DNA from: Candidatus Cloacimonadales bacterium
Lineage (GTDB): Bacteria > Cloacimonadota > Cloacimonadia > Cloacimonadales > JAIOQZ01
Direction of reading: 5' to 3'
Assembly (NCBI GenBank): GCA_963665815.1
Contig: OY762463.1
Location: 1,248,001-1,312,000, forward strand
Length of the DNA: 64,000 bases
Position 1 is the stretch's first letter, and every line of letters starts with the position of its first letter. Both the position numbers and the translations under genes were made by a program. Shown in pieces: positions 11,533 to 28,300 of this stretch. The notes under the pieces were generated by a model. It was not told where the DNA came from. It saw nothing but the letters and a program-made list of their open reading frames with translations, and did not search any database.

Positions 11533-13497
11533 ATGTTGATATATTTCTTAAGTGAAAATATTCATTTAGTCAATAGTGCGAATTCTTGGAAATCTGACAA
11601 TGCAGACGTAGTATTGGAAGCTGTACCTAATATAGGTAATCTGGTTAAAAGAGTTAAAAGCAGCAGTCCGAATATCATTGTTGTTGATGTATCAAAATCC
11701 AGGCAGTCATATGATTTGATCAGTAATTTCAGAATATTATCGGGAATACCTGTTTTCTGTGTATCCAAGAATCCGGATATCGAAATAGCTGTTAATTGTT
11801 TAAAATCAGGAGCATTGGACTATGTCGTTTACGAAAACTCCACAATTCAGCAGGTAATTGATAAAATTGCAGACACATGTGAAAAGGAATATGATAACTG
11901 TTATCTCGAAACTCACATCCAGACTGTAAGAAAACTTAGAAGAGAAAAGCAGCAGAAAAGTGTTATCCTCCAGCGTTCACCTATCATATATTTTTACTGG
12001 AATCCATTCGATAATAACAGTCTGAAGCATATTACAGAGAGTGTAAGTTTTCTTGGTTACACACAGGAAGAATTTCTGACAGGTGAAACAAAGCTTTCCG
12101 ACCTGCTTTTCCAGAAAGATATGGACAATATTATGGATCTGATTGCGCAATTTGACGGTTCAGAAGATAGCCATACATACACATTGGAAATCAGAGTAAA
12201 GAAAAAAGACGGAACTCTACATTGGGTTGAAGACAGAACGACTGTACTGAAAATGGAAGATGGAAGCATTAACTGCTATACCATACTTCTAGATATCGAA
12301 TCATATAAACAGACAGTAATTGCTTTGAAGGAAAGTGAAGAAAAATTTAAACAGGCCCATAAAATGGAAGCAATAGGAAGATTAGCTGGTGGAATTGCCC
12401 ATGATTTCAATAATCTCCTGACTACTATTCTCGGCTATTCCGATCTTGCTTTGATGACAGCCGACTCTCCCAAAGAACTAGAAAATGCCATTAATGAGAT
12501 AAAGAAATCCGGTGAAAGAGCTGCATCACTGACTCATCAGTTACTTGCATTCAGCAGAAAGCAGATAATGAAATTCCAGGATGTGGATTTAAATAAACTG
12601 ATACTTAATTTGAGTAAAATGCTTAAAAGACTAATAGGCGAAGACATTCTTTTCCAAACTAGTTTAAAAGCTAATCTTAAACCGGTTTATGCAGACAATT
12701 CTCAGTTGGAACAAGTAATCATGAACCTTGTTGTAAACGCAAGAGATGCTATGCCAAAGGGTGGTTCAATCATCATTTCTACAAAGTCTGTAAGAGTTAC
12801 GGAAAACTCCAAAACAATCAGAGATGTTGAAGTAATTCCCGGACAATACATTGAGCTGTCAGTTTCTGATGATGGATGCGGTATGCACCCAGATATGACA
12901 GTTCTGATATTCGAACCTTTTTTCACAACAAAGGAGCAAGGCAAAGGCACCGGTCTCGGACTGTCTACAGTTTACGGTATTGTGAAGCAGACAGGTGGAT
13001 ATATCTGGGTTGACAGCAATATAGGAGAAGGTACAACATTCAAAATTTTACTTCCGACAAGCAAAAACTCAAGCTCACTTGATGAGGAAAACTGCATAAA
13101 TGAAAAGCCCTCAGGAGGAAATGAAACTATTCTGGTTGTTGAAGATGAGGAAACCTTAAGAATTCTGACTGTAAAAATTCTTGAAAAAATAGGATACAAT
13201 GTATATTCAGAGAAAAGTGGTAATGATGCTTTGAAATTCATAAAGGAGACAAATGGTGACCCTAAGATTGACTTAATCATTACTGATGTTGTAATGCCGG
13301 GAATGAATGGCTTTGAACTGGCTCAACACGCTCTTAACATCCTCCCTGAATTGAAACTCATTTATTTTTCTGGATATACAGACAGTATTATTGAGGATCA
13401 CGGGATATTTCAGAGCAGCGAGAATTTCCTCGCAAAACCATTCACAACTATGGAACTTTCGACATTAGTTCGCAGTGTGTTGGATTCCCAGGATTAA
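11533..13497 (+). CDS. Hybrid sensor histidine kinase (degenerate REC-PAS-HisKA-HATPase-REC), CckA-like
   Basis: H-box AGGIAHDFNNLL, NLVVNARDAM, DDGCGM, FEPFFTTK, GTGLGLS; C-terminal receiver VVEDE...TDVVMPG...LAKPF. Confidence 0.93.
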   Translation: MLIYFLSENIHLVNSANSWKSDNADVVLEAVPNIGNLVKRVKSSSPNIIVVDVSKSRQSYDLISNFRILSGIPVFCVSKNPDIEIAVNCLKSGALDYVVYENSTIQQVIDKIADTCEKEYDNCYLETHIQTVRKLRREKQQKSVILQRSPIIYFYWNPFDNNSLKHITESVSFLGYTQEEFLTGETKLSDLLFQKDMDNIMDLIAQFDGSEDSHTYTLEIRVKKKDGTLHWVEDRTTVLKMEDGSINCYTILLDIESYKQTVIALKESEEKFKQAHKMEAIGRLAGGIAHDFNNLLTTILGYSDLALMTADSPKELENAINEIKKSGERAASLTHQLLAFSRKQIMKFQDVDLNKLILNLSKMLKRLIGEDILFQTSLKANLKPVYADNSQLEQVIMNLVVNARDAMPKGGSIIISTKSVRVTENSKTIRDVEVIPGQYIELSVSDDGCGMHPDMTVLIFEPFFTTKEQGKGTGLGLSTVYGIVKQTGGYIWVDSNIGEGTTFKILLPTSKNSSSLDEENCINEKPSGGNETILVVEDEETLRILTVKILEKIGYNVYSEKSGNDALKFIKETNGDPKIDLIITDVVMPGMNGFELAQHALNILPELKLIYFSGYTDSIIEDHGIFQSSENFLAKPFTTMELSTLVRSVLDSQD

Positions 13498-13627
13498 GTT
13501 GTCTCCAAAGCATGTATATACAATGTTCAGTTAACTGATTTACTTTAGAAAAAAAGACAAATTTTCATAGACAAATATTGATAATCCCTCATAAATTGCA
13601 AAAATAATATCCACAGGATTTAATGGG

Positions 13628-14500
13628 ATGAAATCAAACTTAGCTGAAAAGCAGACAAAACTTGACGCACTGCTTGAAAACGTTAACAGTTCTTATATTT
13701 CTACAATAAAAAGTAACATCAGTAAAATATTCAGAGTATTCAGTGATCCTGATGCTACTGCAACCGAATTAAAAGATGTCATTGAGAATGACCCACCTCT
13801 GTATGCGAAAGTTCTAAAGTATGCGAATTCCGCATATTATGGTTCACGAAGAGAAATTTCAGAGATTAAGCAGGCAATAATCTGTCTTGGATTTAACACA
13901 GTAAAGGAGCTTGCATTAACCCAGAAAGTATGTTCTATCTTTGAAAAAGATGAGAAGAATGAAAATTTTTCACTATTAGATTTATGGAAACACAGTATCT
14001 CTGTAGCGATCTGTGGACGGTTGTTGTACAGGAGAGAATTCAGAGAAAAAAGTGATCTGATCTATACCGCAGGAATACTCCACGACATCGGAATAATCAT
14101 TGAGGATCAATTCCGTCATGACTTGTTCAATACTATTATTGAAGAAGCTAACAGAACAAATGAAGACACAATAGATATTGAAAACAGAATTTTAGGATTT
14201 AATCACTCAGAAATTGGTAGAGCTATAGCAGAAGACTGGGAATTCCCCACGGAATTATGCAATGCTATTGGGGCTCACCACTATTACAGTAACGAGTCCA
14301 GTTTGTTATGTAAAGTTCTCGCAATTTCCGAGTATATATGCCAGTCTGAGGACATAGGCTTCTGTGACACACCTTATATAGATGAAGAGCTTTATAATTC
14401 ATATGTCACAGAATTAGAAATAGAAAAAGAAGCTATAGAATTAATCAAAGAAAAACTCATGCTTGAGTTAAACAGAATGGAAGAACAGGGATGGTTCTAA
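13628..14500 (+). CDS. HDOD domain signal transduction protein
   Basis: DPPLYAKVLKYANSAYYG, AIICLG, LWKHS, AGILHDIG, HSEIG, W-FP, AHH. Confidence 0.92.
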   Translation: MKSNLAEKQTKLDALLENVNSSYISTIKSNISKIFRVFSDPDATATELKDVIENDPPLYAKVLKYANSAYYGSRREISEIKQAIICLGFNTVKELALTQKVCSIFEKDEKNENFSLLDLWKHSISVAICGRLLYRREFREKSDLIYTAGILHDIGIIIEDQFRHDLFNTIIEEANRTNEDTIDIENRILGFNHSEIGRAIAEDWEFPTELCNAIGAHHYYSNESSLLCKVLAISEYICQSEDIGFCDTPYIDEELYNSYVTELEIEKEAIELIKEKLMLELNRMEEQGWF

Positions 14501-14503
14501 TTA

Positions 14504-15862
14504 ATGAATTCTGAGATTAAAAGAAAGAACAAACAGATCGAAGAGCTTAAAGAGCGAATAAAGTATCTGGAAATTGAAAACAGACATATAAAAAATGACT
14601 ATGCTCTTATGAAAGAAGATTATAGTCATGCTTCTGACAAGTACATGGAGATTCTACATGACTTTGAGAAATCAAACTCTGAGTTGCGACAGAAGAATAA
14701 TTTAATATCTGAACAGAATAAAGAGATTAAACAGAGGAATATCCAGAACAGCATTCAAAAAGAACAATTAGCAAGACAGAATAATTTCCTGCAAACTCTT
14801 TTGGACAGTATCCCTAATCCGGTATATTATAAGGATATGGATAACAGATATCTGGGCTGTAATGAAGCATTCTGTAAGTTAGTGAATCTCAGTTTTTCCG
14901 AAATTATCAGTCAGAACGAAATTGTTCAAAACTCAAACCTCTCTCATAAAGCCTTTGATGATTCTGCTCCTGACCTCCAATTAGGTAACTCCCCTAAACG
15001 ATTTGAATTTAAATTAACTTTGCAGGATGTAACAAGAAATATTGTTATCAACAAAGCTGTTTTCAAGGATATTAACAGGGAAAATGCAGGTTTAATAGCT
15101 GTAATTACAGATATAACCAAACTCAAAGAAATTGAAAACGAATTGAAAGAATCTCAGATTAAATTACAAAGAGCAATGAAGTCAAAAGACAAGTTTTTCT
15201 CAACAGTAACTCATGATCTGAAAAATCTTCTTACAATCCTATTTATGTCCTGTGATGCTATTGAAAACTCAGATCTTAATCTTAATCAGGAACAGCAGAC
15301 CAGAATTGTAAAAAAAGCAGCAAGAGGATTCAGGCAGTTCCACGAAACTCTGAATAATCTGCTTAACTGGGCAAAATCTCAAACCGGCCGTATTCCTTAT
15401 GAGCCGGAAACAATAGATCTCAAAAAAGTTACGGAAAATTGTGTATCTCTTCTGGAACCTTTTGTGAAAGAGAAATCAATCAATCTTATCACAGAAGTAG
15501 AAAATAGCTGTATAGCTTTTGCTGACAGGTCAATGCTTCATTCAGTACTTACAAACCTATTGACGAATGCTGTCAAATTTACTAACGCTGATGGAATTGT
15601 AAAGTTAGCAGCTCTTACTGAAGGTAACACTTGCATTATAACCGTTCAGGATAATGGTGTAGGTATGAGTAAAGATGACCAGGCAAGATTATTCAATATT
15701 GACGAAAACTTCACACGTAAAGGCACAAAGAATGAACCGGGAACAGGCCTCGGTCTGATTATATGTAAAGAATTTATCGAAATCAACAGGGGTTCTCTAC
15801 ATCTTAGTAGTGAACTAAATAAGGGAAGCACATTTGAAATACATTTACCTACAATAATTTAA
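14504..15862 (+). CDS. Cytoplasmic PAS sensor histidine kinase
   Basis: N-terminal coiled coil, PAS (LDSIPNPVYYKD...GCNEAF), H-box THDLKN, NLLTNAVKFT, DNGVGM, GTGLGL. Confidence 0.92.
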   Translation: MNSEIKRKNKQIEELKERIKYLEIENRHIKNDYALMKEDYSHASDKYMEILHDFEKSNSELRQKNNLISEQNKEIKQRNIQNSIQKEQLARQNNFLQTLLDSIPNPVYYKDMDNRYLGCNEAFCKLVNLSFSEIISQNEIVQNSNLSHKAFDDSAPDLQLGNSPKRFEFKLTLQDVTRNIVINKAVFKDINRENAGLIAVITDITKLKEIENELKESQIKLQRAMKSKDKFFSTVTHDLKNLLTILFMSCDAIENSDLNLNQEQQTRIVKKAARGFRQFHETLNNLLNWAKSQTGRIPYEPETIDLKKVTENCVSLLEPFVKEKSINLITEVENSCIAFADRSMLHSVLTNLLTNAVKFTNADGIVKLAALTEGNTCIITVQDNGVGMSKDDQARLFNIDENFTRKGTKNEPGTGLGLIICKEFIEINRGSLHLSSELNKGSTFEIHLPTII

Positions 15863-15871
15863 GCAGGAATA

Positions 15872-17437
15872 ATGAGTATTGAAACCAGAATCAAGAATTT
15901 ACTGTTAAATCACAGGAAAAGCTATGCATCACTGGTAACAATGTACTTCTTACTGTTTTCAGTAGTCTCCTTTTCTATCTTAAGTATTGTATGGATAATC
16001 AGTGACTTCATTTCCCTGAAAAAAGATTTATTAAGATTCAAATCAGAATATATAGAAAATCAGAAGAAGCATGTCAAATTGCAGACAAATCATGCTGTAA
16101 GAATAATAGAGAACTTTAAAAACGATTATATCAAGAAAGCCGAAAACAATACTATCCATCATGCAATGACTCTTGATAAAATCTTCAGTACTATCGCTAA
16201 AAACAGAATTTCAAAAGGAAACAGACAGTTTCAGGTTCTATCTGAAGTGGCAAATGACTATGTCTCAAAAAAACCTCTGCTAAACATATCACTTTACCAG
16301 CCTGCATCCGGGAAGATTTACTCAAATTATCAAAATCAGAATCAGTCTCAAAGAAATAATCAATATATAAAGACTGTATTGGACAGCTTTCTCACAGACA
16401 ATGAAGACAGAATGAGCAAATCAATTGAGATCCCTATTGATCAACCGAAATCAAAAGAATTATTTTATGTTCTCTATAATTCCGATACATCAACATATAT
16501 TCTGATCAGCGAAATTCTATCCCACAGAAAACAGGAAGTTCAACAGGAAGTCCTCAAAGAAATCCAGAAAATCTCTTTTGATGAAAGTGGATATATCTTC
16601 GTTAACACATATGATGGAGATGCTCTGATTACTAATGGGAAGTTGAATAATACACAAGTCAATCTATGGAATCTTGTAGATTCAGATAACAATAAAGTAA
16701 TTCAGATGGAAAGAGAAGCTGCAGCAAAACCTGACGGAGATTTCATTCAATACACATGGAAAAAGCCTGGAGGAGAGAATCCTATACCGAAGATGTCATA
16801 CATCAAAGGTATTGATGACTGGGAATGGATGCTTGGTGCAGGTTTCTATCTCGATAATGTAAATGAAGTAGTAAAGAAACAGAGAAATGCAACAATTAAA
16901 TCAATTATCAGAGAAGTGATGATTGTTCTGATAGTTCTGTTATTGTTACTCTTGCTTATATTCTATTTTTCAAGATATCTGACAAAAATGACCAAAATAA
17001 ACTTCCAGATACTGAACAATTTTTTCCAGATTGCAGCTAAAGAAGCAACTTTAATAAACGAGGACATGCTTCATTTTTCTGAATTTAAAGATTTGGCCTC
17101 TGCAGTCAACTCCATGATTATTGAGAGACAACATTACGAACAGGAAAAAGCCGAGTTTGAAAGAAAATCATCAGCCCTGGCAATGGCAGTTACTGCCAGC
17201 CACGAGATTAATCAACCCTTGATGATTCTTTCCGGTAACATAGAACTGCTTCAATTATCTTTGAGAAACGAAAACCTGACACAAAAGCAAAGACAACATC
17301 TGGAAATGATTTACAAAGCGTTAGCAAGAATCCAGTCAATTCTAAGCATGTTCAAAGAATCTAATTCAGTAAGATTTGAGAACTACAGTGATGGTACCGA
17401 CATGGCTATTCTTGACAAAAGTAAAGAACTTCTTTAG
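15872..17437 (+). CDS. Membrane sensor with Cache domain and HisKA-like tail, lacking a HATPase domain
   Basis: Two TM helices flanking a Cache region (GYIFV...GDFIQYTWKKPG...KMSY...WEWMLGAGFY); ASHEINQPL H-box about 78 aa before the stop. Confidence 0.8.
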   Translation: MSIETRIKNLLLNHRKSYASLVTMYFLLFSVVSFSILSIVWIISDFISLKKDLLRFKSEYIENQKKHVKLQTNHAVRIIENFKNDYIKKAENNTIHHAMTLDKIFSTIAKNRISKGNRQFQVLSEVANDYVSKKPLLNISLYQPASGKIYSNYQNQNQSQRNNQYIKTVLDSFLTDNEDRMSKSIEIPIDQPKSKELFYVLYNSDTSTYILISEILSHRKQEVQQEVLKEIQKISFDESGYIFVNTYDGDALITNGKLNNTQVNLWNLVDSDNNKVIQMEREAAAKPDGDFIQYTWKKPGGENPIPKMSYIKGIDDWEWMLGAGFYLDNVNEVVKKQRNATIKSIIREVMIVLIVLLLLLLLIFYFSRYLTKMTKINFQILNNFFQIAAKEATLINEDMLHFSEFKDLASAVNSMIIERQHYEQEKAEFERKSSALAMAVTASHEINQPLMILSGNIELLQLSLRNENLTQKQRQHLEMIYKALARIQSILSMFKESNSVRFENYSDGTDMAILDKSKELL

Positions 17438-17542
17438 GTTTCAAATATACAATACTTCTTCTCAGGCATTATCCTGTAATGTAAAATCCATTCGGATTAC
17501 CTGATACAACAATAAAAAACTTCATTTATAGAATAAATTATA

Positions 17543-17570
17543 TTGACAATATAAAGTATTAAATTATTAT
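17543..17570 (+). promoter_or_regulatory. Putative sigma70-type promoter of the surface-protein/motor operon
   Basis: TTGACA-16 nt-TATTAT in the AT-rich intergenic region upstream of 17698. Confidence 0.4.
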
Positions 17571-17697
17571 CTTAATATATTTTGTATAGATTTGTAATTA
17601 TTTGTCTTTAATAATATTGGCATTATATTTTTTTTGTCGTATAATATAATTAGTAATAATAAAGTGTTTCTAAAATCACATTTTCTGGGAGCAATAG

Positions 17698-20600
17698 ATG
17701 AAATATTTATCAATATTTACTTTGATTCTACTCTGTGCATCTTTTCTGAACTCTGCACCTCTCGAGATATTTGATTGTAATCCCGATACAACAGGAGTTG
17801 AAAATGTATCAACATTATCAAACATTACATTTCATATCAGGGATACAGATCCAAATGGTGGAGTAAATGAAAACTCCATAATAGTGCAAATTCAGGATGA
17901 GATTTATTCTCATACAAGTGCAAACAGCCAATACATCCACTTCATTCCTGTGAACGATCTGGAGTATTATATCGTTATTGACCCTGCAACAAACTTTGCA
18001 TATGGAGATACAGTAAGTGTATCTATTGATGCTTCAGATGTAAATGGTGTTCTGATGCCAACATTTGAATACAGCTACAGATGTATTGTCGATAACCTTC
18101 CACCATACTCTATCGCCAGTAATCCTACTGCAAGGCAACTGCAAGTACCTGTGGACACACCTATTCAGTTTCGTGTCAGAGATATGGAGATGGGGGTTGA
18201 TATTTCAACCGTAACTGCTACAGTAAGGTATCAGAATAACTCTGTTACTTATGGCAGTAATGATACTCAGAACTTTCAGTTCTCGGGAACTCTGGATAAC
18301 TTCCTCTGCCAAGTCAATATGCCGGATGCTTTTGATTTTGGTGATTCAGTTAATGTTGTAATTAATGCGGAAGACCTTGCTGGCAATCAAATGATTCCTT
18401 ATACATACTGGTTTATCTGTTTTATTGATAACGTCCCACCTTATACTGGGGAATACACTCCGGATATTAATTCAATTGACAATCCGGTAAATACAAATGT
18501 TTCATTTAATGTTTATGATCAACATTCAGGAATTGATTTAAATGAACTAAGAATTAAAATTAATGATAACTACTATACACATGTCAGTACTTCTGTAAGT
18601 GTCAATCCTTTGATTGGAGATAATGGCTATCAGGTTATTATCAATCCTATCAATAGCTTTGCCTTTAATGATCTGATTGATGTTACAATCTGGGCTAAAG
18701 ATACTCATGGCAATGAAATGGACTCTGTAGCCTATCAATTTCAGACAATAGCAGACGACACTCCACCTTATACAGGAGACTGGATTCCGGGCAATAACGC
18801 TCAAAACGTACCTTTGAGCACAAACATTCAATTCAACGTTTATGACCTTATTGCAGGCGTCAATCCGAACTCAGTTGTTGTAACAGTTAATAATGACACA
18901 ACTTATACTGTTACAAGCACAGGTGTAAGCTATGTCCAGATTCCAAACGGATATCGATTTACGATAAACCCAACAGTAAACTTTGATTATAACGAGCTTG
19001 TACAAATTGAAATTCAGGCAACGGATAATAACAATAACGTTATGATTCCTTATGATTATTCATTCAGAACAATTCCTGATTCCAATGATCCTCCTATCTT
19101 ACAGCTTCCTGACACATTCTTTGTTAATGAAGATGACAGTCTGGTTGTTGATTTCGATGTTTATACACATGACCCTGATGGGGATGCTCTTGTTATAACA
19201 GTTAACCAGACACCTGTTCATCCAAATATTAATGTCACAATTAATAATAATATGGTAACGTTCAAACCATCCTTCATGAACTGGATTGGTACTGAAAACG
19301 TTGGTTTTACAATTAATGATGGACGAGACAATACAACTGGAACTGTCAGTATTACTGTGCTTCCGGTTAATGACAGACCAGTCATAGTTCTTCCTGATGA
19401 ATTTGTGTTTAATGAAAATGATAATTATCAGATAAACTTCGCTCAATATATTCAAGATGTTGATAACAGCATTGGAGACTTTCAGTTGAACGCCAGCGGA
19501 AACTCAGATATTCATGTATCAATATCTAATACTGTTGTTACATTCTCTGCTGATCCTTACTGGTTTGGTCAGGAAGCGATCACTTTCACTGTATTTGACG
19601 ATGATACAAGGCTTAGTTCATCAGATACAGTACTTGTTAGAGTTGTAAATATTGTTGAAGAGCCTATGATTGATGGACCTTCAAGTATTACCCTTACAGA
19701 AGATACAGCTCAGACATTTGATTTTTCCTATTACATTACAAATAATGATAATATCCCTATAACCCTGACCCAGTCAAACGCTAATGAATTTACTGTAGAT
19801 GTTTCAATAAACGGATATCAGGTTACATTCACTCCGGCTGCCGATTATCAGGGAACAAGAACAATAAGATTTAACTTACTGGACAGCAACAGCAACATAC
19901 TTGATTATGATGATATTGATATTATCGTTACACCTGTTAATGATCCTGTAAGACTTAATCCTGCTTTCCAGAGCTATTTTGAGTTTACTCAAGGATCATC
20001 TCTGAATCTTGATTTCAGTAATCTTATTATGAATCCTGATGAGATTCCATATGAAATGGAACTCTCTGTTGCAGGAAACGAAAACATCATTGTTAATATC
20101 GACAGTCTTATGGTGAATATTTCTGCATCTGAAACTTGGTCTGGTCAGGAAAGGCTTACATTTACAATAGTCGGTGACGAAATAAACGGTACTGATCACT
20201 GGGAATTCGATAAAGAAATTGATATCAAAGTTATCACAACAGTTCAAATAAATCCGTCTTTCAATGATTACTTCACATTCACAGAAGGAACCACCTTCAG
20301 AACAAGTTTTGCCGGCATGGTTACAAATGCTGAGAACTATGCTCTGGAACTCACCTATACGGGAAATTCCTTTATTCAAGTTGATATTGATAGTCTGGAT
20401 GTTTCTTTCTCAGCCCCGGATAAATGGGTTGGAGAAGAGGATATCACATTCAAAATTGCAGGTACTGACCTGAACAGCAGAGCAGACTGGGAATTTGAAA
20501 AAGTAATAAGAATTACTGTTGAACCTGCAGCTGAGAATCTTGGTGAAAAAGTTGAACTACAATACAGGTCAATAACAAGAAATAATGGAAATCAATCCGA

Positions 20601-20826
20601 TATTTACATATATACAGAAGTTGACATTTCGAAGATAAAAGGTAAAATTCTTTCCAGAAGAGGAAAAGTCATTAAAGATTTGAACATTCAAACCCTTGGT
20701 GACAGAAAAGTAACAAACTGGAATACTACAGATAATGATAATAATCTTGTTGATGGTGGTTTCTATATCTACCAGTTCAAAATTGACGACAAGATTTATC
20801 AGGGTAGTATAATTGTAGTAAGGTAA
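17698..20826 (+). CDS. Large secreted surface protein: 4 Ig-like repeats + about 5 cadherin-like (tandem-95-type) repeats + C-terminal sorting domain (T9SS type B-like / FlgD-Ig)
   Basis: Signal peptide; repeats D-x-PPY...VP-x-T-x-I-x-F-x-V-x-D; repeats ...VTF-x-P...W-x-G-x-E...V-x-PVND-x-P; tail GKVIKDL...WNTTD...GFYIYQF...QGSIIVVR. Confidence 0.8.
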   Translation: MKYLSIFTLILLCASFLNSAPLEIFDCNPDTTGVENVSTLSNITFHIRDTDPNGGVNENSIIVQIQDEIYSHTSANSQYIHFIPVNDLEYYIVIDPATNFAYGDTVSVSIDASDVNGVLMPTFEYSYRCIVDNLPPYSIASNPTARQLQVPVDTPIQFRVRDMEMGVDISTVTATVRYQNNSVTYGSNDTQNFQFSGTLDNFLCQVNMPDAFDFGDSVNVVINAEDLAGNQMIPYTYWFICFIDNVPPYTGEYTPDINSIDNPVNTNVSFNVYDQHSGIDLNELRIKINDNYYTHVSTSVSVNPLIGDNGYQVIINPINSFAFNDLIDVTIWAKDTHGNEMDSVAYQFQTIADDTPPYTGDWIPGNNAQNVPLSTNIQFNVYDLIAGVNPNSVVVTVNNDTTYTVTSTGVSYVQIPNGYRFTINPTVNFDYNELVQIEIQATDNNNNVMIPYDYSFRTIPDSNDPPILQLPDTFFVNEDDSLVVDFDVYTHDPDGDALVITVNQTPVHPNINVTINNNMVTFKPSFMNWIGTENVGFTINDGRDNTTGTVSITVLPVNDRPVIVLPDEFVFNENDNYQINFAQYIQDVDNSIGDFQLNASGNSDIHVSISNTVVTFSADPYWFGQEAITFTVFDDDTRLSSSDTVLVRVVNIVEEPMIDGPSSITLTEDTAQTFDFSYYITNNDNIPITLTQSNANEFTVDVSINGYQVTFTPAADYQGTRTIRFNLLDSNSNILDYDDIDIIVTPVNDPVRLNPAFQSYFEFTQGSSLNLDFSNLIMNPDEIPYEMELSVAGNENIIVNIDSLMVNISASETWSGQERLTFTIVGDEINGTDHWEFDKEIDIKVITTVQINPSFNDYFTFTEGTTFRTSFAGMVTNAENYALELTYTGNSFIQVDIDSLDVSFSAPDKWVGEEDITFKIAGTDLNSRADWEFEKVIRITVEPAAENLGEKVELQYRSITRNNGNQSDIYIYTEVDISKIKGKILSRRGKVIKDLNIQTLGDRKVTNWNTTDNDNNLVDGGFYIYQFKIDDKIYQGSIIVVR

Positions 20827-20830
20827 GGTT

Positions 20831-22291
20831 ATGAACATGAAAAATATACTCGTTTTAATACTACTTGTTTCCCTTTCACTTTTGTTCTCTCATGAATTCG
20901 GAGAGCACGGAGGAGTTCGTAATGCAGCAATGGGCGAAACCGGAATTTCTAACAGTACTGACGTTTCAGGTGCTCAATGGAATCCTGCATTAATCAGCAG
21001 CCTGAAACACTATCAGTTTGTCACTGACTTAAGACAATCCTCAGTCCAGTTAGATAATGATGATATTTACCATAACTTCCTTTTCCTCGGAATTCCTGTT
21101 GAGAATATTGGTACTTTCTCTGTCAGTGGAGGTCTTTTCAATTCTGATGAGTATGAGAATGCCGAATTAAGTTTGAATTACGGAAGAAGCCTTGGAGATA
21201 AATGGGCAGTTGGATTAACTGTTGTAAATTACTATGTAAACTACTCAGGAATATCTGAAACATCATCCGCTCTTGATCTTGGTCTGGGTGCACTTTATCA
21301 TCCTACCGAATATTTCACACTTGGTTTATCAACCAGAAATTTGCTTAGACCGGATGTTGCCGTAGACTCACGTAATGAAGACAAATTGCCTATGCTTGCT
21401 GGTTTAGGAGCAACTTTCCATGCTAACAATCTGATAATCACAACTGATTTTGAATATCAGGACATGCTGAATACAGATGATGAAATCAGGCTTGGACTTG
21501 GTGCGGAATACTCCATATATGATAACCTCGCAATTCGAACAGGTTTCAACAATAACTTCTTTACAGCCGGTTTCGGAGTAAAGATGTATACAAAAAACTG
21601 GTTTGCCAATCCTGACAGGACTAACGACCTGTATAACGTAAATACAGCTTCAATATCTCTTGATTATTCTGCAAGGTTCCCCATTTTCTTTAGTGGTGGA
21701 AATGACCTTATAAGCTTTGAAAATGAAGCTGAAACAGAATATGGAGATCACTTTATTGGGATTACGGTTGACTTTGGTACAGACACAGTTAACAAAGATC
21801 AGCTTGCATATTACTTCCCTGAAAAGTATGGAAGAAGATTCGGTGTTGCAGATACTGTTTTCATCGAAAAAGTTGTTAAAGACACAATCTATCAGGACAG
21901 AACAATAATTGATACTGTTGCTGTTTATGAAAAAATTGTGGATCAGGAGCTTTTACAGGAAAGACTGGAAGAACAACTTGAGATTGTAAAAGTAAAAGAA
22001 TATGACAGTATTAACAGAGCATCTGTTGATCACCTTGTTAATGCTTTACGTTACTACTACAATGCTGAATACAAGAAATCAATTGCAGAATGTGAAAAAT
22101 CAATTGATATCGCTCCTAGATTGTCATTGTCATACATTATTCTCGGATCCATATACTATAAAATGGGAGATAGTGAACTTGCATTTGACTACTGGGAAAA
22201 AGCAAAGAAAGTATATTCGAAAAATGAAGAATTAAATAAAGTTTTAGAAAACATTTATAATGGAATTGAAGATTTCATTCCACAATATTAG
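20831..22291 (+). CDS. PorV/UPF0164 (FadL-like) outer-membrane beta-barrel with C-terminal stalk and TPR extension
   Basis: Signal peptide; GVRNAAMGE...WNPA N-terminal motif; amphipathic strands (LDLGLGALY, LGLGAEY, AIRTGF, FTAGFGV, IGITVDF); C-terminal TPR (YIILGSIYYKMGD-x-AFDYWEKA). Confidence 0.78.
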   Translation: MNMKNILVLILLVSLSLLFSHEFGEHGGVRNAAMGETGISNSTDVSGAQWNPALISSLKHYQFVTDLRQSSVQLDNDDIYHNFLFLGIPVENIGTFSVSGGLFNSDEYENAELSLNYGRSLGDKWAVGLTVVNYYVNYSGISETSSALDLGLGALYHPTEYFTLGLSTRNLLRPDVAVDSRNEDKLPMLAGLGATFHANNLIITTDFEYQDMLNTDDEIRLGLGAEYSIYDNLAIRTGFNNNFFTAGFGVKMYTKNWFANPDRTNDLYNVNTASISLDYSARFPIFFSGGNDLISFENEAETEYGDHFIGITVDFGTDTVNKDQLAYYFPEKYGRRFGVADTVFIEKVVKDTIYQDRTIIDTVAVYEKIVDQELLQERLEEQLEIVKVKEYDSINRASVDHLVNALRYYYNAEYKKSIAECEKSIDIAPRLSLSYIILGSIYYKMGDSELAFDYWEKAKKVYSKNEELNKVLENIYNGIEDFIPQY

Positions 22292-22305
22292 AAAAAGGAT
22301 TTAAC

Positions 22306-23691
22306 ATGAAAAGATCATTCATCATCGTTATGTTTTTGTTTTCCTTCGTTGTTCTGCTAGCCCAGAATTACGATACGGTATATCAGATTGATGCTGAAAA
22401 AAGCCTGGCAGAGCGTATCGAAAAGGTTATTGAACCGATTGCCGGTAAAACAGTCGTAATTGTTGATCTTGAATTAAGATATCCGCCAGAGGGACTTGTA
22501 CCGTTCGGAATGGAACTCGATAAAAAATCTAGTCTTCCGGGAATTCCCGTTGCAAAATCCAAGGGTGTTTTAACTCCAAACATTGCAGATCAACCTACAT
22601 TTCCTACGATTGTAACCAAAAAGAAGATCATAATTTATGCAGACCAGAATCTTTCAGCAGACAGGGAAGCATATATTGCAGAAAATGTTGCCAAATGGTT
22701 TGCTCTTAATCTTCTTGAAAACGATGTTTTAGAGATTCGAAAAGAGTTAGATCTTACAGGTAGCTCAAAAGGGAACTTTTTTACTTCCCCTATCTTCTAT
22801 TTCATTATATTCCTGCTATTGTTGATAGTCTTCTTTGTTATTGCCCTGTTCCATGTAAACAGAATGGCAGAATCAATGAGACATGTTAATATTACAGGTA
22901 TCGACAGTCTTATCAGAATTATGAGTTCAATGCAGACAAAATTTGAGACAATGAGTAACGCTGTTTCAGGACTGGACTATTCTTCCAAGGAACCATTACC
23001 TATACAGGTTATGGAAAAACGTGAAGATGTATACGACGAATCTATGGACTTCCACTTCATTGAAAAACTTTCAATGCCGGAATTTGTCCATCTTATAAAA
23101 GATGAAACTGCAGACAGTGCAGCATTTATCTTGTCTAATCTTTCTACGAATTTTGCCAGAAACTTCTTCCAGGAATACCTTGGCAATTCTGCTGAGATAA
23201 TCAAACACATGACAACCTCAGTAAAACAATCCAAGAAAGATGTTCAGGAACTGAGAGCTAAACTCTATGACCGATTCAAACTTATTGTTGAAGAAAGTCA
23301 GGTTAGATTTGAAGGAGCATCAACTCTTATCAAGGTTACTAATTCACTTCCTACCGGATACAGTTCAGACTTCTATAAACTCATCCAGAAAGCTGATGGA
23401 AAAGCAGCATCTGACATCAGAGATAAAGTGTTCCTGCTTGAAGATGTTGAAAAACTGGATGATAATGTAATTGATCAGATAATTAAGCAATCAGATCATA
23501 ACCTGTTAGTCAAATTCCTTCTCAGTGTAGATGAAAGTCTTCTTCAAAAATTCTTCCAGAATATGTCTGAAAGAAATATCCTGATTGTCAAAGAGGATAT
23601 GGAAGTACTTGGACCTCTATCTTCCGATGACAAAGAAAAGACTAAGAACAGCATGTTAGCAATGATCAGATCAATGCTCAAATACAAATAA
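22306..23691 (+). CDS. FliF(ring-building motif)-TM-FliG(middle + C-terminal) fusion protein
   Basis: C-terminus matches FliG_C (VFLLEDVEKLDD...KFFQNMSER...KEDMEVLGP); aa 248-325 resemble FliG_M (FHFIEKL...IKDE...AFILSNL); aa 30-146 resemble FliF RBM3 (ERIEKVIEPIAG-x-VIVDLEL...LPG...IIIYAD...NDVLEI); TM at aa 163-182. Confidence 0.8.
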   Translation: MKRSFIIVMFLFSFVVLLAQNYDTVYQIDAEKSLAERIEKVIEPIAGKTVVIVDLELRYPPEGLVPFGMELDKKSSLPGIPVAKSKGVLTPNIADQPTFPTIVTKKKIIIYADQNLSADREAYIAENVAKWFALNLLENDVLEIRKELDLTGSSKGNFFTSPIFYFIIFLLLLIVFFVIALFHVNRMAESMRHVNITGIDSLIRIMSSMQTKFETMSNAVSGLDYSSKEPLPIQVMEKREDVYDESMDFHFIEKLSMPEFVHLIKDETADSAAFILSNLSTNFARNFFQEYLGNSAEIIKHMTTSVKQSKKDVQELRAKLYDRFKLIVEESQVRFEGASTLIKVTNSLPTGYSSDFYKLIQKADGKAASDIRDKVFLLEDVEKLDDNVIDQIIKQSDHNLLVKFLLSVDESLLQKFFQNMSERNILIVKEDMEVLGPLSSDDKEKTKNSMLAMIRSMLKYK

Positions 23692-23701
23692 GGAAAATGT
23701 T

Positions 23702-24439
23702 ATGAAGATTAGCACAATATTAGGTATCATAATCGGGTTTGGAATAATCTTATATGCAGTATATCTTGAAGACGCAATCCAGTATTTTCTGAATCCTCAG
23801 GCAATATTGATTGTTGGCGTTGGAACATTTGCAGCTGTACTGATTTCATTTTCCTCAAGTGCAATCATAGATGCAATCTTTGCATTCTTCGCTATTTTTA
23901 CAAGCTCAGGACTTTCACCCAAAAAAGTCATTGAGATTATTGTGAATCTCGGAAAAGAAGCAAGAACAAACAGCTATGAAAGCCTTTTACTCAGTAGACA
24001 TGTCAAGAATCTTGGAATGCTTGAAAGAGGAATAAGATTACTAAATGAAGATGTTACATCTGATAAAATTGAAACTATCCTCACCAGAGAAAGTAAAGCA
24101 CTATCAGACAGAAACAGAACGGCTGAAAGAGTCTTCAGACTTGCCAGTACATTCTCACCACTATTTGGTATGATCGGAACTGTTATCGGGATGGTTATAA
24201 TGATTAATAAATCATCCAATCCGGATGATCTTCCCAAAGCAATGGGAATAGCTCTGTTATCCACTCTTTACGGACTTATCCTGTCTGGTCTTGTTTTCAA
24301 ACCTATTGCAAGTAAGATTAGAGATAATAACCATACTAATAACAAAGTTAACGACATTATCATCGAAGGTGTTCTGTCAATTCAGAATGGCGAGAATTCT
24401 CAGCTTACAAAAGAAAAACTTGAAACATATTTACATTAG
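23702..24439 (+). CDS. motA: MotA/PomA-family stator A subunit
   Basis: TILGIIIG, FLNPQAILIVGVGT, KEAR, SPLFGMIGTVIG, MGIALLSTLYG, FKPIASK, IIEGVLSIQNGEN: full flagellar-type MotA/PomA pattern. Confidence 0.92.
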   Translation: MKISTILGIIIGFGIILYAVYLEDAIQYFLNPQAILIVGVGTFAAVLISFSSSAIIDAIFAFFAIFTSSGLSPKKVIEIIVNLGKEARTNSYESLLLSRHVKNLGMLERGIRLLNEDVTSDKIETILTRESKALSDRNRTAERVFRLASTFSPLFGMIGTVIGMVIMINKSSNPDDLPKAMGIALLSTLYGLILSGLVFKPIASKIRDNNHTNNKVNDIIIEGVLSIQNGENSQLTKEKLETYLH

Positions 24440-24447
24440 AGTTTATC

Positions 24448-25032
24448 ATGAGTAATAAAGTAATAAATTTTAAGGGAATTAAAAGATTTACTCAGCAGGA
24501 TACGACTGATGAGGAAAATTGGGTTGATGTAATGGTTTCCTTTGCAAGCCTGATGCTGATTCTTGTTGTATTTTACATGTTCTTTCAATCATATCAAAAA
24601 TTATATGATGAGGGGAAAATTGAAAATGCTGTATATTCTCAAGATTCCACTCGATATGTTTTTACTTTGAAGAATGCCGAATATTTCAAGAGTTACAGCA
24701 GTTCTTTTACCGCAAATGCCGAAACAGATCTGATTCAACTTGGAAAGATGCTTAATTCAAAGATTGAAAATCAAAAAAGAAAATGGCAGATCAGAATTGA
24801 AGGACATACTGATGATATTCCGTTCAGTGACAGTAATTATTCTTCAAACCTGGATCTGAGTGCTGCAAGAGCATCGGCTATTGCGAATTTCTTTATTTCA
24901 AAAGGTTATTTTCATCCGGATCAGCTTCAAGTAGCAGGATATGGAGACTTAAAACCTATGGTACCAAATGTAAGTGATGAGAACAGAATATCAAATAGAA
25001 GAGTAAATATTATTTTGTATAAAGTACATTAA
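24448..25032 (+). CDS. motB: MotB-like stator B subunit with OmpA-type peptidoglycan-binding domain
   Basis: Single N-terminal TM; IRIEGHTDDIP...SNLDLSAARA...GYGDLKP...NRRVNI; directly after motA; canonical TM Asp replaced by Ser. Confidence 0.85.
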   Translation: MSNKVINFKGIKRFTQQDTTDEENWVDVMVSFASLMLILVVFYMFFQSYQKLYDEGKIENAVYSQDSTRYVFTLKNAEYFKSYSSSFTANAETDLIQLGKMLNSKIENQKRKWQIRIEGHTDDIPFSDSNYSSNLDLSAARASAIANFFISKGYFHPDQLQVAGYGDLKPMVPNVSDENRISNRRVNIILYKVH

Positions 25033-25052
25033 TATACAATCTTAAACATATG

Positions 25053-25085
25053 AGACCTGTTGTTTTACAATGGGTCTTTTTTTTT
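25053..25085 (+). terminator. Rho-independent terminator after motB
   Basis: AGACCTGTTGT-TTT-ACAATGGGTCT hairpin followed by a long T run. Confidence 0.8.
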
Positions 25086-25306: not shown

Positions 25307-28300
25307 ATGCGAAGACAATTAATATTAGCTTTATTGCTTTTATTCGCAGTTTCCATTTTTGCACAGACCTCAGGAGGTCCTGACGCTTACGGATACTCAT
25401 GGATTAACAGTAATGATGCTAATGGTCCTTCTTTCACCTGGATCACTCCGGATACAGTGAACGCAACACAAGTAACTACTTTCACGGACGATTCAATGGT
25501 AGGTCCATTCACAATTGGTTTTAACTTTCCATTTTACGATCAAACAAAGACAGACTTTTATTTAAGTTCAAACGGATTTATTTCCTTTACAGGAGACACA
25601 AACAGTCTCACAAACTACACAATCCCTACACCAGGCATCCCTAATGACTTTATTGCATGGTTCTGGGATGACATGGACCCTGTAAGCACTACAGCCCCAG
25701 CTAACAATGCTCGTGTTTATTACGAAAATATAACTTACAGTGGTACTAACGCGCTTCTAATCACATACCTGAATTATCATGAATACTCAGGAGAAGGAAC
25801 AGGATACGTTGATGCACAAGTTATCCTGAGAGACAATGGTCAAATCATCATGCAATACGATTCATTCAATGGTGGTATTGTTTTAAACGAAGCTACAATT
25901 GGCATCGAAAACTCTGATGGAACTATCGGTCTTGAATACTGCTTTGATGACTCAACATTAATTTCAAATCAACTTGCCATAAAATATTACACAATTGAAG
26001 ATGGCTATCCTGAATTTGCACAAAACCCTAATCCAGCCTCAGGATCAACAGGTATTCTCGTTAATGGAACATTAACATGGGATTTCGGTGCAGATACTGA
26101 TACTTATGATTTATGGTTCGGACCTGCAGGAAATATGACTCAGGTTGTAACCGGTGCCACAGCAGGAGCTACAGGCTCATACACATATAGTGGACTTAAT
26201 ACTCTTTCCAGCTACGAATGGAGAGTCGATACTCATAATACTGCTGTTAGACTTTCTACAATCGGAGCAGTATGGACTTTCGAAACTCAGTGTGGTACAA
26301 TTACTACATTCCCATGGAGTGAAGATTTTGAAGGAGCACAGCTTCCTTCATGCTGGGTAGAAGATATTAATAACATTACTCCATGGTCTTTTGGTACATC
26401 TACTCCATCCTCTCCTACCGGTCCTTCATCTGGAGACCATACAAGTGGTTCAGGATATTTCATGTATACAGAAGCATCTGGAAGCCTCAATCAAGTTTTC
26501 AAAGTGACATCCCCAATATTTGATGCATCTGCTTTAACATCACCAGTTCTTGAATTCTGGTATCATATGTACGGGCAATCAATGGGAACTCTTCAAGTTA
26601 ACATTTTAGAACCGGCTACCGCTACATTACACTCAGATGTTATTACTCCTGTATCAGGAGATCAGGGAGATGTATGGAACAACGCAAGTGTAGATTTAAC
26701 ACCTTACACAGGTGAATTCCAGATTGAATTCATCGGAACAACAGGAGATGACTACTACAGTGACATCTGTATTGATGATGTAGGTATTTATGATAATGTT
26801 ACAACACCTGCATGTAACGCACTGAATACACCGGCTGATATGGCTATTGACATTATTGAAGCTGGAACACTGACTTGGAGTGGATCACAAGGTGCAACAG
26901 GCTATAAAGTTTCTCTTGGTACAGATAACCCTCCAACAAACATCGAAGATGGTCTTGATGTTGGAGCAGCTTTTTCTTATGACTTCTCAGGATTAACTTT
27001 CGGAACAACTTACTACTGGATGGTAACTCCTTACAATACAAACGGTGAATCTACAGGATGTCCTGTAAGATCATTCACTGTAAGAGCTGATCCAACCATA
27101 TCTACTTTCCCATGGACTGAAGATTTCAGCGTATGGCCACTACAAGACTGGGTTTTTGCAGGATCAAGACTGTGGGCAGAAGATTCAGGATCAGGATCTG
27201 CTTACTGTAATTTCTGGGGTTGGAGCGATGGTGAAGCTCATATGGTTACTCCTCCAATAGCCCTCCCTGCTACAGGTTCTTACAGCTTTGGTTTCAACTG
27301 GTCTCACTTATACAGCACTACATATCCTACAGACTCAGCGGCAGTATTAGTTTCTACTGATGGAGTTAACTGGAACATGGAATGGACTCTTGGTGGAACT
27401 AACTTCGATTCAAACGATGGAGCTGCGAACACTGCTCCAGGTACATTTACTTATGCTGAATTCAATCTTGACAGTTATCTTGGACAAACGATATACATTG
27501 ATGTAGTAGGTTACACAGGCTATGGTCCTAACTTCTACGTTGATAATGCTACTGTTTTCAGCGTTTCAACACCTCCTGGATGCTCAACAGCTGATACTCC
27601 TGCTGATGGTGCTAATGAAATTATCGAAATGGGCACACTCAGATGGAATACTACTGGAGGAACAACCGGTTATAAACTCTTCTTTGGGTCAGATAACCCA
27701 CCTACAAACATTGAAAATGGAACAGATCTTGGTAACGTGCAAACTTACGACTTCTCAGGACTTGCATTCAATACTACTTACTACTGGACTGTAGTACCTT
27801 ATAACACTAATGGTGATGCTACAGGATGCCCTGTATGGTCATTCACAACAAGACCTGATCCAACAGTTACTAACTTCCCATGGACAGAAGATTTCTCATC
27901 ATTCCCACTTGAGCCACGTGGCTGGAGCTATGGTGGTACTCAGCAATGGGCTGAAGATGCAGGTTCAGGAAGTATATTCGCAAACTTCTGGAGCTGGAGC
28001 ACTGGTAATGCTGAATTATACTCACCACCAATCGCATTAACAGGAAACGCAGACCTTCTTTTCAAATGGTCACACACATTCAATACTTCATATCCGGATG
28101 ATGCTTTTGAAGTGTCAGTATCAACAGATCAATCAAACTGGACTGTTGTATGGTCAATTCAGGATTCTCTGTTTGAATCTAATGATGGTGCTCAAAGTAC
28201 AGCTCCTGGTACTTTTGTTCAGGAAACCGTAAATATTGATGCATATAGTGGTCAGACAATCTATCTTAAGTTTGATGGTATTTCAGGATACGGTCCTAAC

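Follow-up and report, generated by a model that had tools for sequence, protein, structure and literature searches.

A candidate flagellum-independent envelope motor operon of Cloacimonadota that combines a FliF/FliG-like fusion and MotAB with an outer-membrane barrel and an adhesin

What do the torque-generating parts of a flagellum do in an operon that opens with a surface adhesin and an outer-membrane barrel? FliG and MotAB are textbook flagellum-only parts. The question is raised by a 64,000-nucleotide (nt) stretch of the forward strand of contig OY762463.1 (positions 1,248,001 to 1,312,000) from a Candidatus Cloacimonadales bacterium (assembly GCA_963665815.1), the whole of which is called the window here. 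Five same-direction open reading frames (ORFs) at 17698-25032, separated by intergenic gaps of 4, 14, 10, and 8 nt and closed by one terminator, encode in order an adhesin, a FadL/PorV-type β-barrel with a periplasmic tail, a FliF/FliG-like fusion that is the rotor candidate, and the A and B subunits of a MotAB-type stator (Table 1). A sequence-only reading of this DNA had described five co-oriented genes with 4-14 nt gaps and one terminator, with which the ORF list and the hairpin at 25052-25078 agree, and a parts list comprising a FliF/FliG-like fusion, a PorV-like barrel with a TPR tail, MotA, and MotB, which profiles and structural matches bear out. We propose, and give about an even chance of being right, that the operon encodes a flagellum-independent, ion-driven envelope machine built from the torque-generating core of the flagellum, which passes force to an adhesin-carrying barrel. 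In what follows, G000 is the genome of the window, G001 is a same-genus relative, and f1, f3, f11, f12, f15, and f17 are families of Cloacimonadota.

The fusion matches PF01706 (FliG_C) with 68.8 bits against a cut-off of 23.3 (E 5.8e-19), and it matches the FliG model TIGR00207 over model positions 97-320 only (E 4.4e-24; 85.5 bits, below the cut-off of 226.7). Its AlphaFold2 (AF2) model, built from 14 homologues and of moderate confidence (mean pLDDT 72), shows in order an N-terminal signal-like helix, an α-β-β-α-β domain (25-148) carrying a poorly ordered insertion (59-101), a hydrophobic helix (162-192), a disordered linker, and an all-helical part (250-457). A Foldseek search with this model returned FliG first (E 2e-9), followed by FliF RBM3/collar entries (E 2e-4 to 1e-3). 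Upon domain-wise re-alignment, residues 22-150 fit Salmonella FliF 233-438 with Z 12.4 and a root-mean-square deviation (rmsd) of 2.3 Å over 95 aligned residues at 17% identity, and other folds scored lower for the same residues (SpoIIIAG, Z 9.7; PrgK, 8.4; the unrelated Ohr/OsmC, ~8). The FliG middle and C-terminal domains reach Z 14.7 against FliG, and the FliG_C chain 1qc7_B gives Z 13.5 with an rmsd of 2.1 Å over 87 aligned residues at 30% identity. We assign residues 22-150 to a FliF-RBM3-like periplasmic domain and residues 245-460 to the FliG middle and C-terminal domains, with R423, E430, and D431 in the torque helix. As modelled, the fusion would thus unite the RBM3 and membrane helix of FliF directly with the middle and C-terminal domains of FliG, without FliG_N.

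The RBM3 likeness of the window fusion is structural only, and a Pfam scan of it gave no match to YscJ_FliF_C. The link to FliF is also seen in sequence, because distant relatives carry YscJ_FliF_C ahead of FliG_M and FliG_C (P0102, E 6.9e-17). Another candidate relative, P0069, joins FliM, DUF4116, and FliG, and was rejected as a family member on its different architecture. No FliG_N was found in the fusion, the N-terminal 230 residues of which are signal peptide, periplasmic domain, and membrane helix; PF01514 (YscJ_FliF, covering RBM1/RBM2) gave no match in it either, its sole match in the genome being the 535-aa FliF at 1227006. The fusion model contains one internal membrane helix, against two in FliF. 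The FliM-binding motif of FliG_M, EHPQR, is absent from the fusion: where the genome's own FliG has KEHPQTIA, the fusion has KDETADSAA, and four relatives have E(K/T/S)(P/D)(E/N) in the same columns. One further fusion ORF, that of G222, contains an in-frame TAG.

The torque helix is kept, as seen from MSERNILIVKEDME in the fusion versus MSERAANIISEEME in the genome's own FliG. R423 is invariant in 14/14 aligned fusion proteins and E430 is conserved in at least 90% of them, and in the genome's own FliG these two columns hold R and EE. The same columns correspond to R281 and D288-D289 of E. coli FliG, which meet R90 and E98 of MotA (PMC12505986). On the stator side, the A subunit matches PomA/MotP/MotA models over its full length with E ~1e-44, below their equivalog cut-offs (best NCBIfam scores of 152 bits against 341-394), and passes the cut-off of Pfam MotA_ExbB (61.3 bits against 22.9). 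It aligns end to end with Vibrio PomA 8brd (E 2.9e-33, residues 1-244). Among the 34 MotAs of the family, P153, T160, and P201 are present in all, and the R88 column holds R in 26, K in 4, H in 3, and L in 1, the window copy keeping R88. In these alignments, the residues of the rotor-stator contact are conserved in the family.

The B subunit matches PF00691 (OmpA) with 60.4 bits against a cut-off of 27.2, and MotB-family models as well; the residues R116, E118-T121, N134, and R141 of its OmpA motif are invariant in 8/8 sequences. In the two f17 genomes, G222 and G223, the B subunits are short (140 and 179 aa; L078 9579-10001 and L079 1338-1877) and match MotB_plug with no OmpA domain. The flagellar-type stator named in the sequence-only reading stands as a MotA/MotB-type pair and fails at one position, the window MotB being without the canonical channel Asp, a point that is weighed below.

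Does the operon belong to the flagellum of its host? G000 is a closed genome of 3.96 Mb with a complete flagellar gene set, including FlhA, FliF with flgB/flgC, a canonical 346-aa FliG, FliM, six flagellin-type matches, and flgE followed by motA-motB-fliL. The flgB/flgC/fliF genes fall just beyond the window, ~38 kb upstream of the operon. A scan of 43 of the 46 window ORFs of at least 90 aa matched no other flagellar family, and there is no export-gate, rod, hook, or filament gene in the window or beside the relatives' loci scanned. The sequence-only reading had likewise found no other flagellar gene in the 64 kb, which is correct for the window; it is no evidence of independence, since G000 has a complete flagellar set. 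Since that set includes fliF, fliG, and motAB of its own, the prospect raised by the same reading, of a set lacking these genes, does not apply. The identity of the operon proteins to the genome's own flagellar ones is 24% for FliG, 26-30% for MotA, and 35% for MotB.

The flagellar genes of G000 are scattered over at least six places (G000:C1 1225275-1227524, 1520439-1525749, 3070934, 3190590, and 3760222-3763975 among them), and the canonical fliG has a Peptidase_S9 gene and DUF3795 as neighbours, not fliF/fliH. At 13 nt after this fliG lies a 168-aa ORF (G000:C1 ~3190957-3191463; L001:1868-2374) that matches FliG_C (E 3.9e-23) and then a part of FliG_M (E 4.8e-12), in permuted order.

The evidence on independence comes from the distribution of the fusion, the profile of which was searched in 232 Cloacimonadota genomes. 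The fusion is present in 49 of them (3 in f1, 9/12 in f12, 34/62 in f11, 1/1 in f15, and 2/21 in f17) and in none of the 98 genomes of f3; 13 further genomes match the fusion profile only as canonical FliG. FlhA is found in 24/232 genomes and in none of f12, f11, or f15. Fusion and FlhA occur together only in G000, G001, and G002, and 46 of the 49 fusion-bearing genomes are without FlhA, 31 of these 46 being listed as at least 90% complete in our tally. At E<=1e-30, the fusion profile is borderline for canonical FliG (1e-31 to 1e-33) and was therefore not used as a flagellum marker; the markers were FlhA, flagellin, and a FliG search at E<=1e-3. No flagellin was found in the five closed fusion-bearing genomes, and the protein search at E<=1e-3 found no canonical FliG in G018, G026, G031, G036, and G035. 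Flagellum independence, as claimed from the sequence alone, holds at the family level, the host of the window being itself flagellated.

Both trees place the module apart from the flagellar proteins. In a quick maximum-likelihood tree of 98 MotAs, with the genome's two TolQ/ExbB-like proteins as root, one clade (SH-aLRT 97) unites 38 database MotA/PomA/MotP proteins with the host's own flagellar MotA, and all 34 context-verified family MotAs fall outside it, a placement to be read with care given the quick tree and its long outgroup branches. A second tree, made from the FliG part of 148 proteins, puts the window fusion into a 44-row clade (SH-aLRT 99) that holds no canonical FliG. The helix-bearing FliG forms are not one group in the latter tree, which requires 9 changes, at least 5 of them forced by starred branches, under crude membrane-helix labels. 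Because of the low identity to the host's own FliG and MotA and the separate clades in the MotA and FliG trees, the module appears to be an old separate lineage and not a recent copy of host flagellar genes.

These results bear on the explanation that the operon holds displaced or accessory flagellar genes, such as an alternative rotor/stator set or a brake. The complete, scattered flagellar set of G000 and the position of fliF ~38 kb away are in its favor, and we nevertheless consider it extremely improbable. The host has its own FliF, its own FliG with the EHPQ motif and the N-terminal domain, and its own motA-motB-fliL; the fusion is membrane-anchored and lacks FliG_N and the EHPQ motif; and 5 of the 8 FlhA-positive f1 genomes (G003-G007) do without the fusion, as 46 of its 49 carriers do without FlhA. 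On the host's own FliF/FliG/motAB, the FlhA-less carriers, and the missing FliG_N and EHPQ, a displaced flagellar operon was rejected.

If the operon does not belong to the flagellum, which genes does the rotor-stator set work with? MotA lies directly 3′ of the fusion gene in 35/36 loci, the lone exception ending at a contig end, and the B subunit follows in every locus with enough flank. A barrel homologue is linked in 20/36 loci, in two gene orders. The colinear order adhesin-barrel-fusion-MotA-MotB is found in G000, G001, G002, G035, G181, G182, G222, and G223, and the barrel is adjacent to the fusion in G157, G160, G175, G177, G179, G190, and G195. In the f12 genomes G018, G026, G031, G036, and G134, the order is divergent, with adhesin then barrel facing fusion-MotA-MotB-AAA_22 onward. 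Chance juxtaposition of these genes is rejected by the conserved synteny in two gene orders. The five-gene synteny, proposed for testing across Cloacimonadota, therefore holds in part: the trio is constant in 35/36 loci, and the adhesin and barrel are frequent (20/36), not universal. The constant core is the fusion-MotA-MotB trio, the TPR element recurs either fused to the barrel or free, and the adhesin-barrel pair is the commonest output, not the sole one.

The free TPR element is seen in six barrel-less loci, where an ORF of 371-379 aa follows MotB (G162, G163, G193, G198, and two tandem copies in G152); three of these proteins were scanned, and all three are TPR/YfiO-like. In G169, a similar 419-aa protein is encoded one gene further on. 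The tandem arrangement of G152 (L081, G152:C42:10000-28685, at 9586-18072) consists of two fusion-MotA-MotB-TPR copies of 475/245/208/371 and 484/245/232/379 aa, with no adhesin or barrel nearby.

Polysaccharide-export genes (AAA_22, Wzz+AAA_31, LytR_cpsA_psr, and Poly_export+SLBB) are directly linked to the trio in f12, G196, and G209. They lie at 2281-7728 of L085, 659-5809 of L072, and 480-2249 of L080, the AAA_22 gene encoding an ExeA-like ATPase. Such linkage suggests that the trio might mainly serve the export or deposition of surface polysaccharide, the adhesin and barrel being secondary additions, an arrangement that resembles in concept the Nfs/Glt systems of Myxococcus, which are driven by the Agl motor. 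In G134, the AAA_22, Wzz+AAA_31, LytR_cpsA_psr, and Poly_export+SLBB genes come immediately after the trio; an AAA_22 gene follows MotB in G018 and G026, and, by ORF size only, in G036 and G031; and export genes stand directly upstream of the trio in G196 and G209. However, there are no such genes in the window or beside the colinear loci L078, L083, and L084, the neighbours of which are housekeeping genes, and the TPR-tailed barrel is the more frequent partner (20/36 loci), and we hold this explanation to be very improbable. A CheY-like single-domain regulator of 122-123 aa lies directly 5′ of the fusion in G196 and G142 (L072 8172-8543; L074 8666-9034), preceded in both genomes by hybrid histidine kinases.

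Outside the 232 genomes, a library of 1.84 billion proteins yielded 83 profile matches at E<=1e-30, with ~37 representatives of full length, plus longer variants. Their source names are 'hypothetical protein', 'FliG C-terminal domain-containing protein', and 'flagellar motor switch protein FliG', and the named organisms among them are Cloacimonadota, candidate division KSB1, Omnitrophota, Desulfomonilia, and Ca. Electryonea; the family MotA is present in Marinimicrobia too. A search of genome contigs for related loci gave 91 stretches with the pattern, 1 of them encoding a relative (a same-genus metagenome-assembled genome). A broader interpretation sees in the module no degenerate flagellum but an ancient rotary engine that diderm envelopes possess independently of flagella, in which a bare MS-ring, FliG, and stator would operate with neither type III export gate nor axial filament and be plugged into varied outputs, namely a T9SS-type (type IX secretion system) adhesin carrier, a TPR lipoprotein, or polysaccharide export. 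We judge this interpretation, its outputs included, rather unlikely.

The adhesin and the barrel are the outputs encoded in the window itself. The sequence-only reading had the adhesin end in a secretion-type C-terminal domain (CTD). The window copy by itself matches weakly, as given below with the other reservations, and no NCBIfam CTD model matched it at E 0.01. The family, on the other hand, supports the assignment: the C-terminal 120 aa of the window adhesin can be aligned both to the adhesin C-termini of 12 other loci and to the Por_Secre_tail CTD that the following window gene encodes, the last ~85 residues being alignable across the 13 locus adhesins. Among 14 sequences, the 13 adhesin C-termini and 1 control CTD, CHU_C matches 13 at E<=0.1 (best 1.8e-10), FlgD_ig matches 10, and Por_Secre_tail matches 3. 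The passengers of the adhesins vary by locus, with cadherin/Big_9 in the window and G035 and FG-GAP plus Big_5 in f12, and the C-terminal domain is conserved.

The barrel gene lies directly 3′ of the adhesin gene in the window and in the 12 relatives' loci where both genes were mapped, and tblastn found no barrel paralogue in the genome at E<=1e-4. The AF2 model of the barrel (mean pLDDT 64) has ~14 strands (61-321), followed by helices to residue 476, with the barrel part at ~25-321. A Foldseek search with it returned FadL at E 4.5e-11 and the PorV chains 6h3i_F and 8gl6_F at best TMt values of 0.56 and 0.55, the fold likeness to FadL and to PorV being about equal. Weaker profile matches are those to PorP_SprF (E 1.1e-4) and TIGR03519 (E 8.1e-5). 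The 165-residue tail (322-486), comprising a DT-rich linker with motifs, helices, and TPR, is conserved in 7/7 orthologues, and it contains the invariant Cys421 (AECEKS), a single Cys with no CxC. A disulfide between this tail and the periplasmic domain of the fusion is excluded because the latter contains no Cys. Type B substrates of the T9SS have dedicated carriers encoded beside the cargo, the periplasmic C-tail of the carrier ties it to a powered track, and the energy chain ejects the substrate-carrier complex from the translocon (PMC12635249). As far as their sequences tell, the adhesin and the downstream barrel match the layout of such a type B substrate and its dedicated carrier.

How might these parts work together? 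In the scheme that we propose, MotA5B2-type stators, held on the peptidoglycan by the OmpA-like domain of MotB, would use ion flow to push the torque helix in the FliG C-terminal domain of the fusion. The fusion would oligomerise via its FliF-RBM3-like domain to form an inner-membrane ring, which would be an MS-ring and a FliG ring in one polypeptide, with no FliG_N/FliF-C joint, FliM/FliN, or export gate. The moving periplasmic face of this ring would engage the TPR-bearing C-terminal tail of the barrel, the latter acting as the dedicated carrier of the upstream-encoded adhesin with its T9SS type-B-like CTD, and force from the inner membrane would reach the adhesin on the cell surface so as to move it, tension it, or set it free. 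In function, the scheme would parallel that of SprB-SprF, with a motor other than the GldLM/GldKN energy chain that drives the latter.

The coupling of barrel tail and ring, which had been put forward from the sequence alone, was approached with one complex prediction. The barrel tail (296-486) and the periplasmic domain of the fusion (21-160), both given as alignments, reached a score of 0.34, against 0.00 for the best of 3 controls; the runs agree in at least 27% of the contacts, and the partner pLDDT is at least 61. Of solved complexes, 58 of 80 reach the mark used for such predictions, as do 2 of 110 mismatched pairs; at scores of 0.60 or less, only 7 of the 80 and both mismatches do. The prediction thus gives weak support, making a tail-ring contact slightly more likely, and is no proof of it.

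The resemblance of the pair to T9SS components also allows for an energiser in place of a rotating ring. MotAB would then push a few copies of the FliG-like protein, which would serve as a lever in the way that GldM does for GldL, and the force would pull the adhesin-carrier pair out of the SprA translocon or drive it into the outer membrane, with no continuous adhesin movement. SprA_N is present in 205/232 Cloacimonadota genomes, G000 included; the adhesin CTDs match CHU_C and the barrel resembles PorV/PorQ/PorP; and an energy chain that ejects a substrate-carrier complex from the translocon has been described (PMC12635249). Neither GldM (PF12081, GldM_1st) nor GldL (TIGR03513) gave a match in G000, which would fit an alternative energiser and does not establish their absence, no control genome having matched for GldL and only a sub-threshold one for GldM. 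Against an energiser of this kind, the best structural match of the periplasmic domain is the ring-forming RBM3 of FliF with its collar insertion, which argues, as far as the model goes, for an oligomeric ring. In addition, the fusion is absent from 183/232 genomes whereas SprA is present in 205/232, so the module is an accessory and cannot be the general T9SS motor. We regard the energiser as somewhat unlikely.

Several observations weigh against the flagellum-independent, ion-driven machine proposed here. The first concerns the ion channel. The column of the canonical MotB channel Asp holds Ser34 in the window (FASLM), Ser in G001, and Asn in G002, and the window MotA has no acidic residue in register with E96 of PomA. 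Asp32 of E. coli MotB is essential, and substitutions other than Glu abolish function. The Asp is kept by 32/34 family MotBs, which read PY(A/G/S)D(L/M)M, and the genome's flagellar MotB reads YGDMM. The replacement counts as genuine evidence against a canonical, active stator in G000, and since the channel Asp is replaced, the stator in G000 and its two closest relatives, G001 and G002, may work differently or conduct no ions. D27, 7 residues upstream of Ser34 and present in the window and most family MotBs, might substitute for the missing Asp.

A non-conducting stator would suit a static or regulatory envelope scaffold in the G000 lineage, in which the complex anchors or positions the adhesin-barrel pair or senses the state of the envelope. 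The Ser, Ser, and Asn at the Asp column and the missing second acidic residue of MotA point that way, as do the co-oriented genes for sensor kinases and HDOD that lie upstream. The sequences are nevertheless under strong constraint. Between G000 and G001, the ratio of nonsynonymous to synonymous substitutions (dN/dS) is 0.028 for MotA, 0.039 for MotB, and 0.034-0.042 for the other three operon genes, at a dS of 0.9-2.0, near saturation; all five genes are under purifying selection and, on these ratios, none is decaying. Moreover, R88, P153, T160, and P201 of MotA and the charges of the FliG torque helix are retained, and D27, which most family members share, could stand in for the Asp. A scaffold is, in our estimate, quite unlikely.

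Other reservations concern the partners and the geometry. The inner-membrane ring and the outer-membrane barrel are separated by the peptidoglycan, which complicates the transfer of force, and we infer the assembly of the ring, its rotation, the path by which force would cross the peptidoglycan, and what this would do to the adhesin. The matches of the two surface partners are sub-threshold: the C-terminus of the window adhesin matches CHU_C at E 0.025-0.033 (15 bits against a cut-off of 27) and FlgD_ig at E 0.008-0.01, and the barrel matches NF033709 (the PorV/PorQ family) at E 2.1e-20 with 73.5 bits, below the cut-off of 90. The AF2 models of both fusion and barrel are of moderate confidence. 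There is no barrel in the fetched flanks of 10/36 loci, and 6 further loci were viewed only within 1.5 kb; the adhesin may be only one of several outputs, because in several of the loci without a barrel the trio is accompanied by polysaccharide-export genes or by a TPR/YfiO-like protein that stands alone. G000 is flagellated, so that cross-talk of the operon with the flagellum may occur in this genome. Finally, no RNA sequencing run covering the stretch was found, and the three runs that contain it, from one study, are of DNA or of unknown kind.

The immediate surroundings of the operon are given in Table 1. The two promoter-like sites in the gap upstream of the operon are consensus matches only (48 such sites were found in the scan versus 36.3 +/- 6.2 in shuffles), and are no more than suggestive of promoters. 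The upstream sensory genes, which may belong with the operon, are also kept 5′ of it in the same-genus genome. The last of them, a dCache sensor at 15872-17437 (+) directly 5′ of the operon, comes after a complete PAS kinase and an HDOD protein, and has HisKA with no match to HATPase_c. Directly 3′ of the terminator, 25307-30037 (+) encodes a protein of 1576 aa whose repeats are of the MAM, fn3, and CarboxypepD_reg kinds and whose CTD is clearly Por_Secre_tail; a homologue of this protein adjoins the operon in G001 too. Elsewhere in the window, a 1077-aa ORF at 3579-6812 (-), between a TPR protein and a radical-SAM gene, has no Pfam match at E 1e-5, and a 1083-aa ORF at 42107-45358 (-) consists of ~420 N-terminal residues without Pfam match, an ABC ATPase, and an ABC-2 permease.

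Table 1. Features of the candidate operon and of its upstream flank, in window coordinates.
Feature	Position	Strand	Basis or remarks
Sensory genes: hybrid histidine kinase-response regulator (HK-RR), HDOD, PAS-HK, dCache-HisKA	11533-17437	+	upstream, same direction as the operon
Two sigma-70-like promoter matches	17543-17570, 17617-17645	+	11/12 positions each; in the 260-nt gap 5′ of the operon
Surface adhesin, 1042 aa	17698-20826	+	signal peptide; Big_5/Big_9/cadherin-like repeats; T9SS-CTD-like C-terminal β domain ending ...GGFYIYQFKIDDKIYQGSIIVVR
Outer-membrane FadL/PorV-type β-barrel with periplasmic TPR tail, 486 aa	20831-22291	+	profiles, AF2 model
FliF/FliG-like fusion (rotor candidate), 461 aa	22306-23691	+	profiles, AF2 model, structural alignment
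MotA/PomA-type stator A subunit, 245 aa	23702-24439	+	profiles, PomA structure match
MotB-type stator B subunit, 194 aa	24448-25032	+	one membrane helix plus OmpA-like peptidoglycan-binding domain
Intrinsic-terminator-like hairpin and T-run	25052-25078	+	12-pair stem, 3-nt loop, then TTTTTTT; closes the operon

New here are the quantitative link of the fusion to flagellum loss within one phylum and the Asp-less stator in the flagellated carriers. The Asp-to-Ser variant of the stator, found in the only flagellated carriers, offers a natural experiment on the ion pathway. If the flagellum-independent machine is real, it would be a new class of ion-driven envelope machine and the sixth output of 5:2 motors after the flagellum, Ton, Tol, Gld, and Agl/Zor, and its fusion would provide a minimal natural one-protein rotor for structural and single-molecule work. 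Force transfer across the periplasm to an outer-membrane carrier, T9SS-type adhesins with a non-Gld motor, and stand-alone flagellar motor parts would become testable. Should the module even be an ancient engine of diderm envelopes, it would represent a second, GldLM-independent way to power the movement of surface adhesins in FCB-group bacteria, and either a living example of the rotor-stator stage, frequently invoked in accounts of how flagella arose, or a clean case of its exaptation.

The sequence-only reading knew of no described system with this combination, and we too found no published FliG/MotAB module that is tied to an outer-membrane barrel or adhesin, or that occurs in non-flagellated bacteria, in the full texts searched, which took in few subscription journals and no supplements. 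The supplementary lists of the MotAB survey PMC12505986 may contain members of the stator clade. Compared with the flagellar motor's core, the operon has the same RBM3-like ring-building domain, the same FliG middle and C-terminal domains with a charged torque helix, a four-helix A subunit of PomA size with the conserved prolines, and a B subunit with an OmpA-like domain. It differs in having one polypeptide for FliF and FliG, without RBM1/RBM2, FliG_N, EHPQ, or the C-terminal FliG-binding peptide, and in having an outer-membrane barrel and an adhesin as partners in place of linked FliM/N, export gate, rod, hook, and filament. Furthermore, the family is found mostly in FlhA-less genomes, and its MotAs fall outside the flagellar clade.

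Covalent FliF-FliG fusions have been engineered in Salmonella and Vibrio and still assemble the S-ring (PMC11481574). These are full-length laboratory fusions inside a flagellum; in contrast, that of the operon is natural, cut down to RBM3 and a FliG without its N domain, and outside a flagellar context. Other systems with 5:2 motors, such as ExbBD-TonB, TolQR-Pal, AglRQS-Glt, and ZorAB (PMC12505986, PMC9389320), share with the proposed machine an ion-driven inner-membrane unit that powers a process at or beyond the outer membrane, but they have non-flagellar 'GIT'-type A subunits and no FliG. The genome's own TolQ/ExbB-like genes are at loci separate from the operon.

In the case of the gliding and T9SS machinery of Bacteroidota (SprB, SprF, GldKN, and GldLM), the likeness extends to the outer membrane. 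Both systems would have an ion-driven inner-membrane motor of the 5:2 type and a dedicated outer-membrane carrier barrel encoded beside a large adhesin with a type-B-like CTD; in both, the periplasmic C-tail of the carrier has a conserved Cys, which is C421 in the operon barrel (PMC12635249). The two differ in the motor and in the tail. The operon would use MotAB with a FliG-type rotor in place of GldLM, and no gene for a GldK/N-like lipoprotein ring is linked to it. The tail of its barrel is a 165-residue TPR domain with one Cys, whereas that of SprF is a short CxC tail (PMC12635249).

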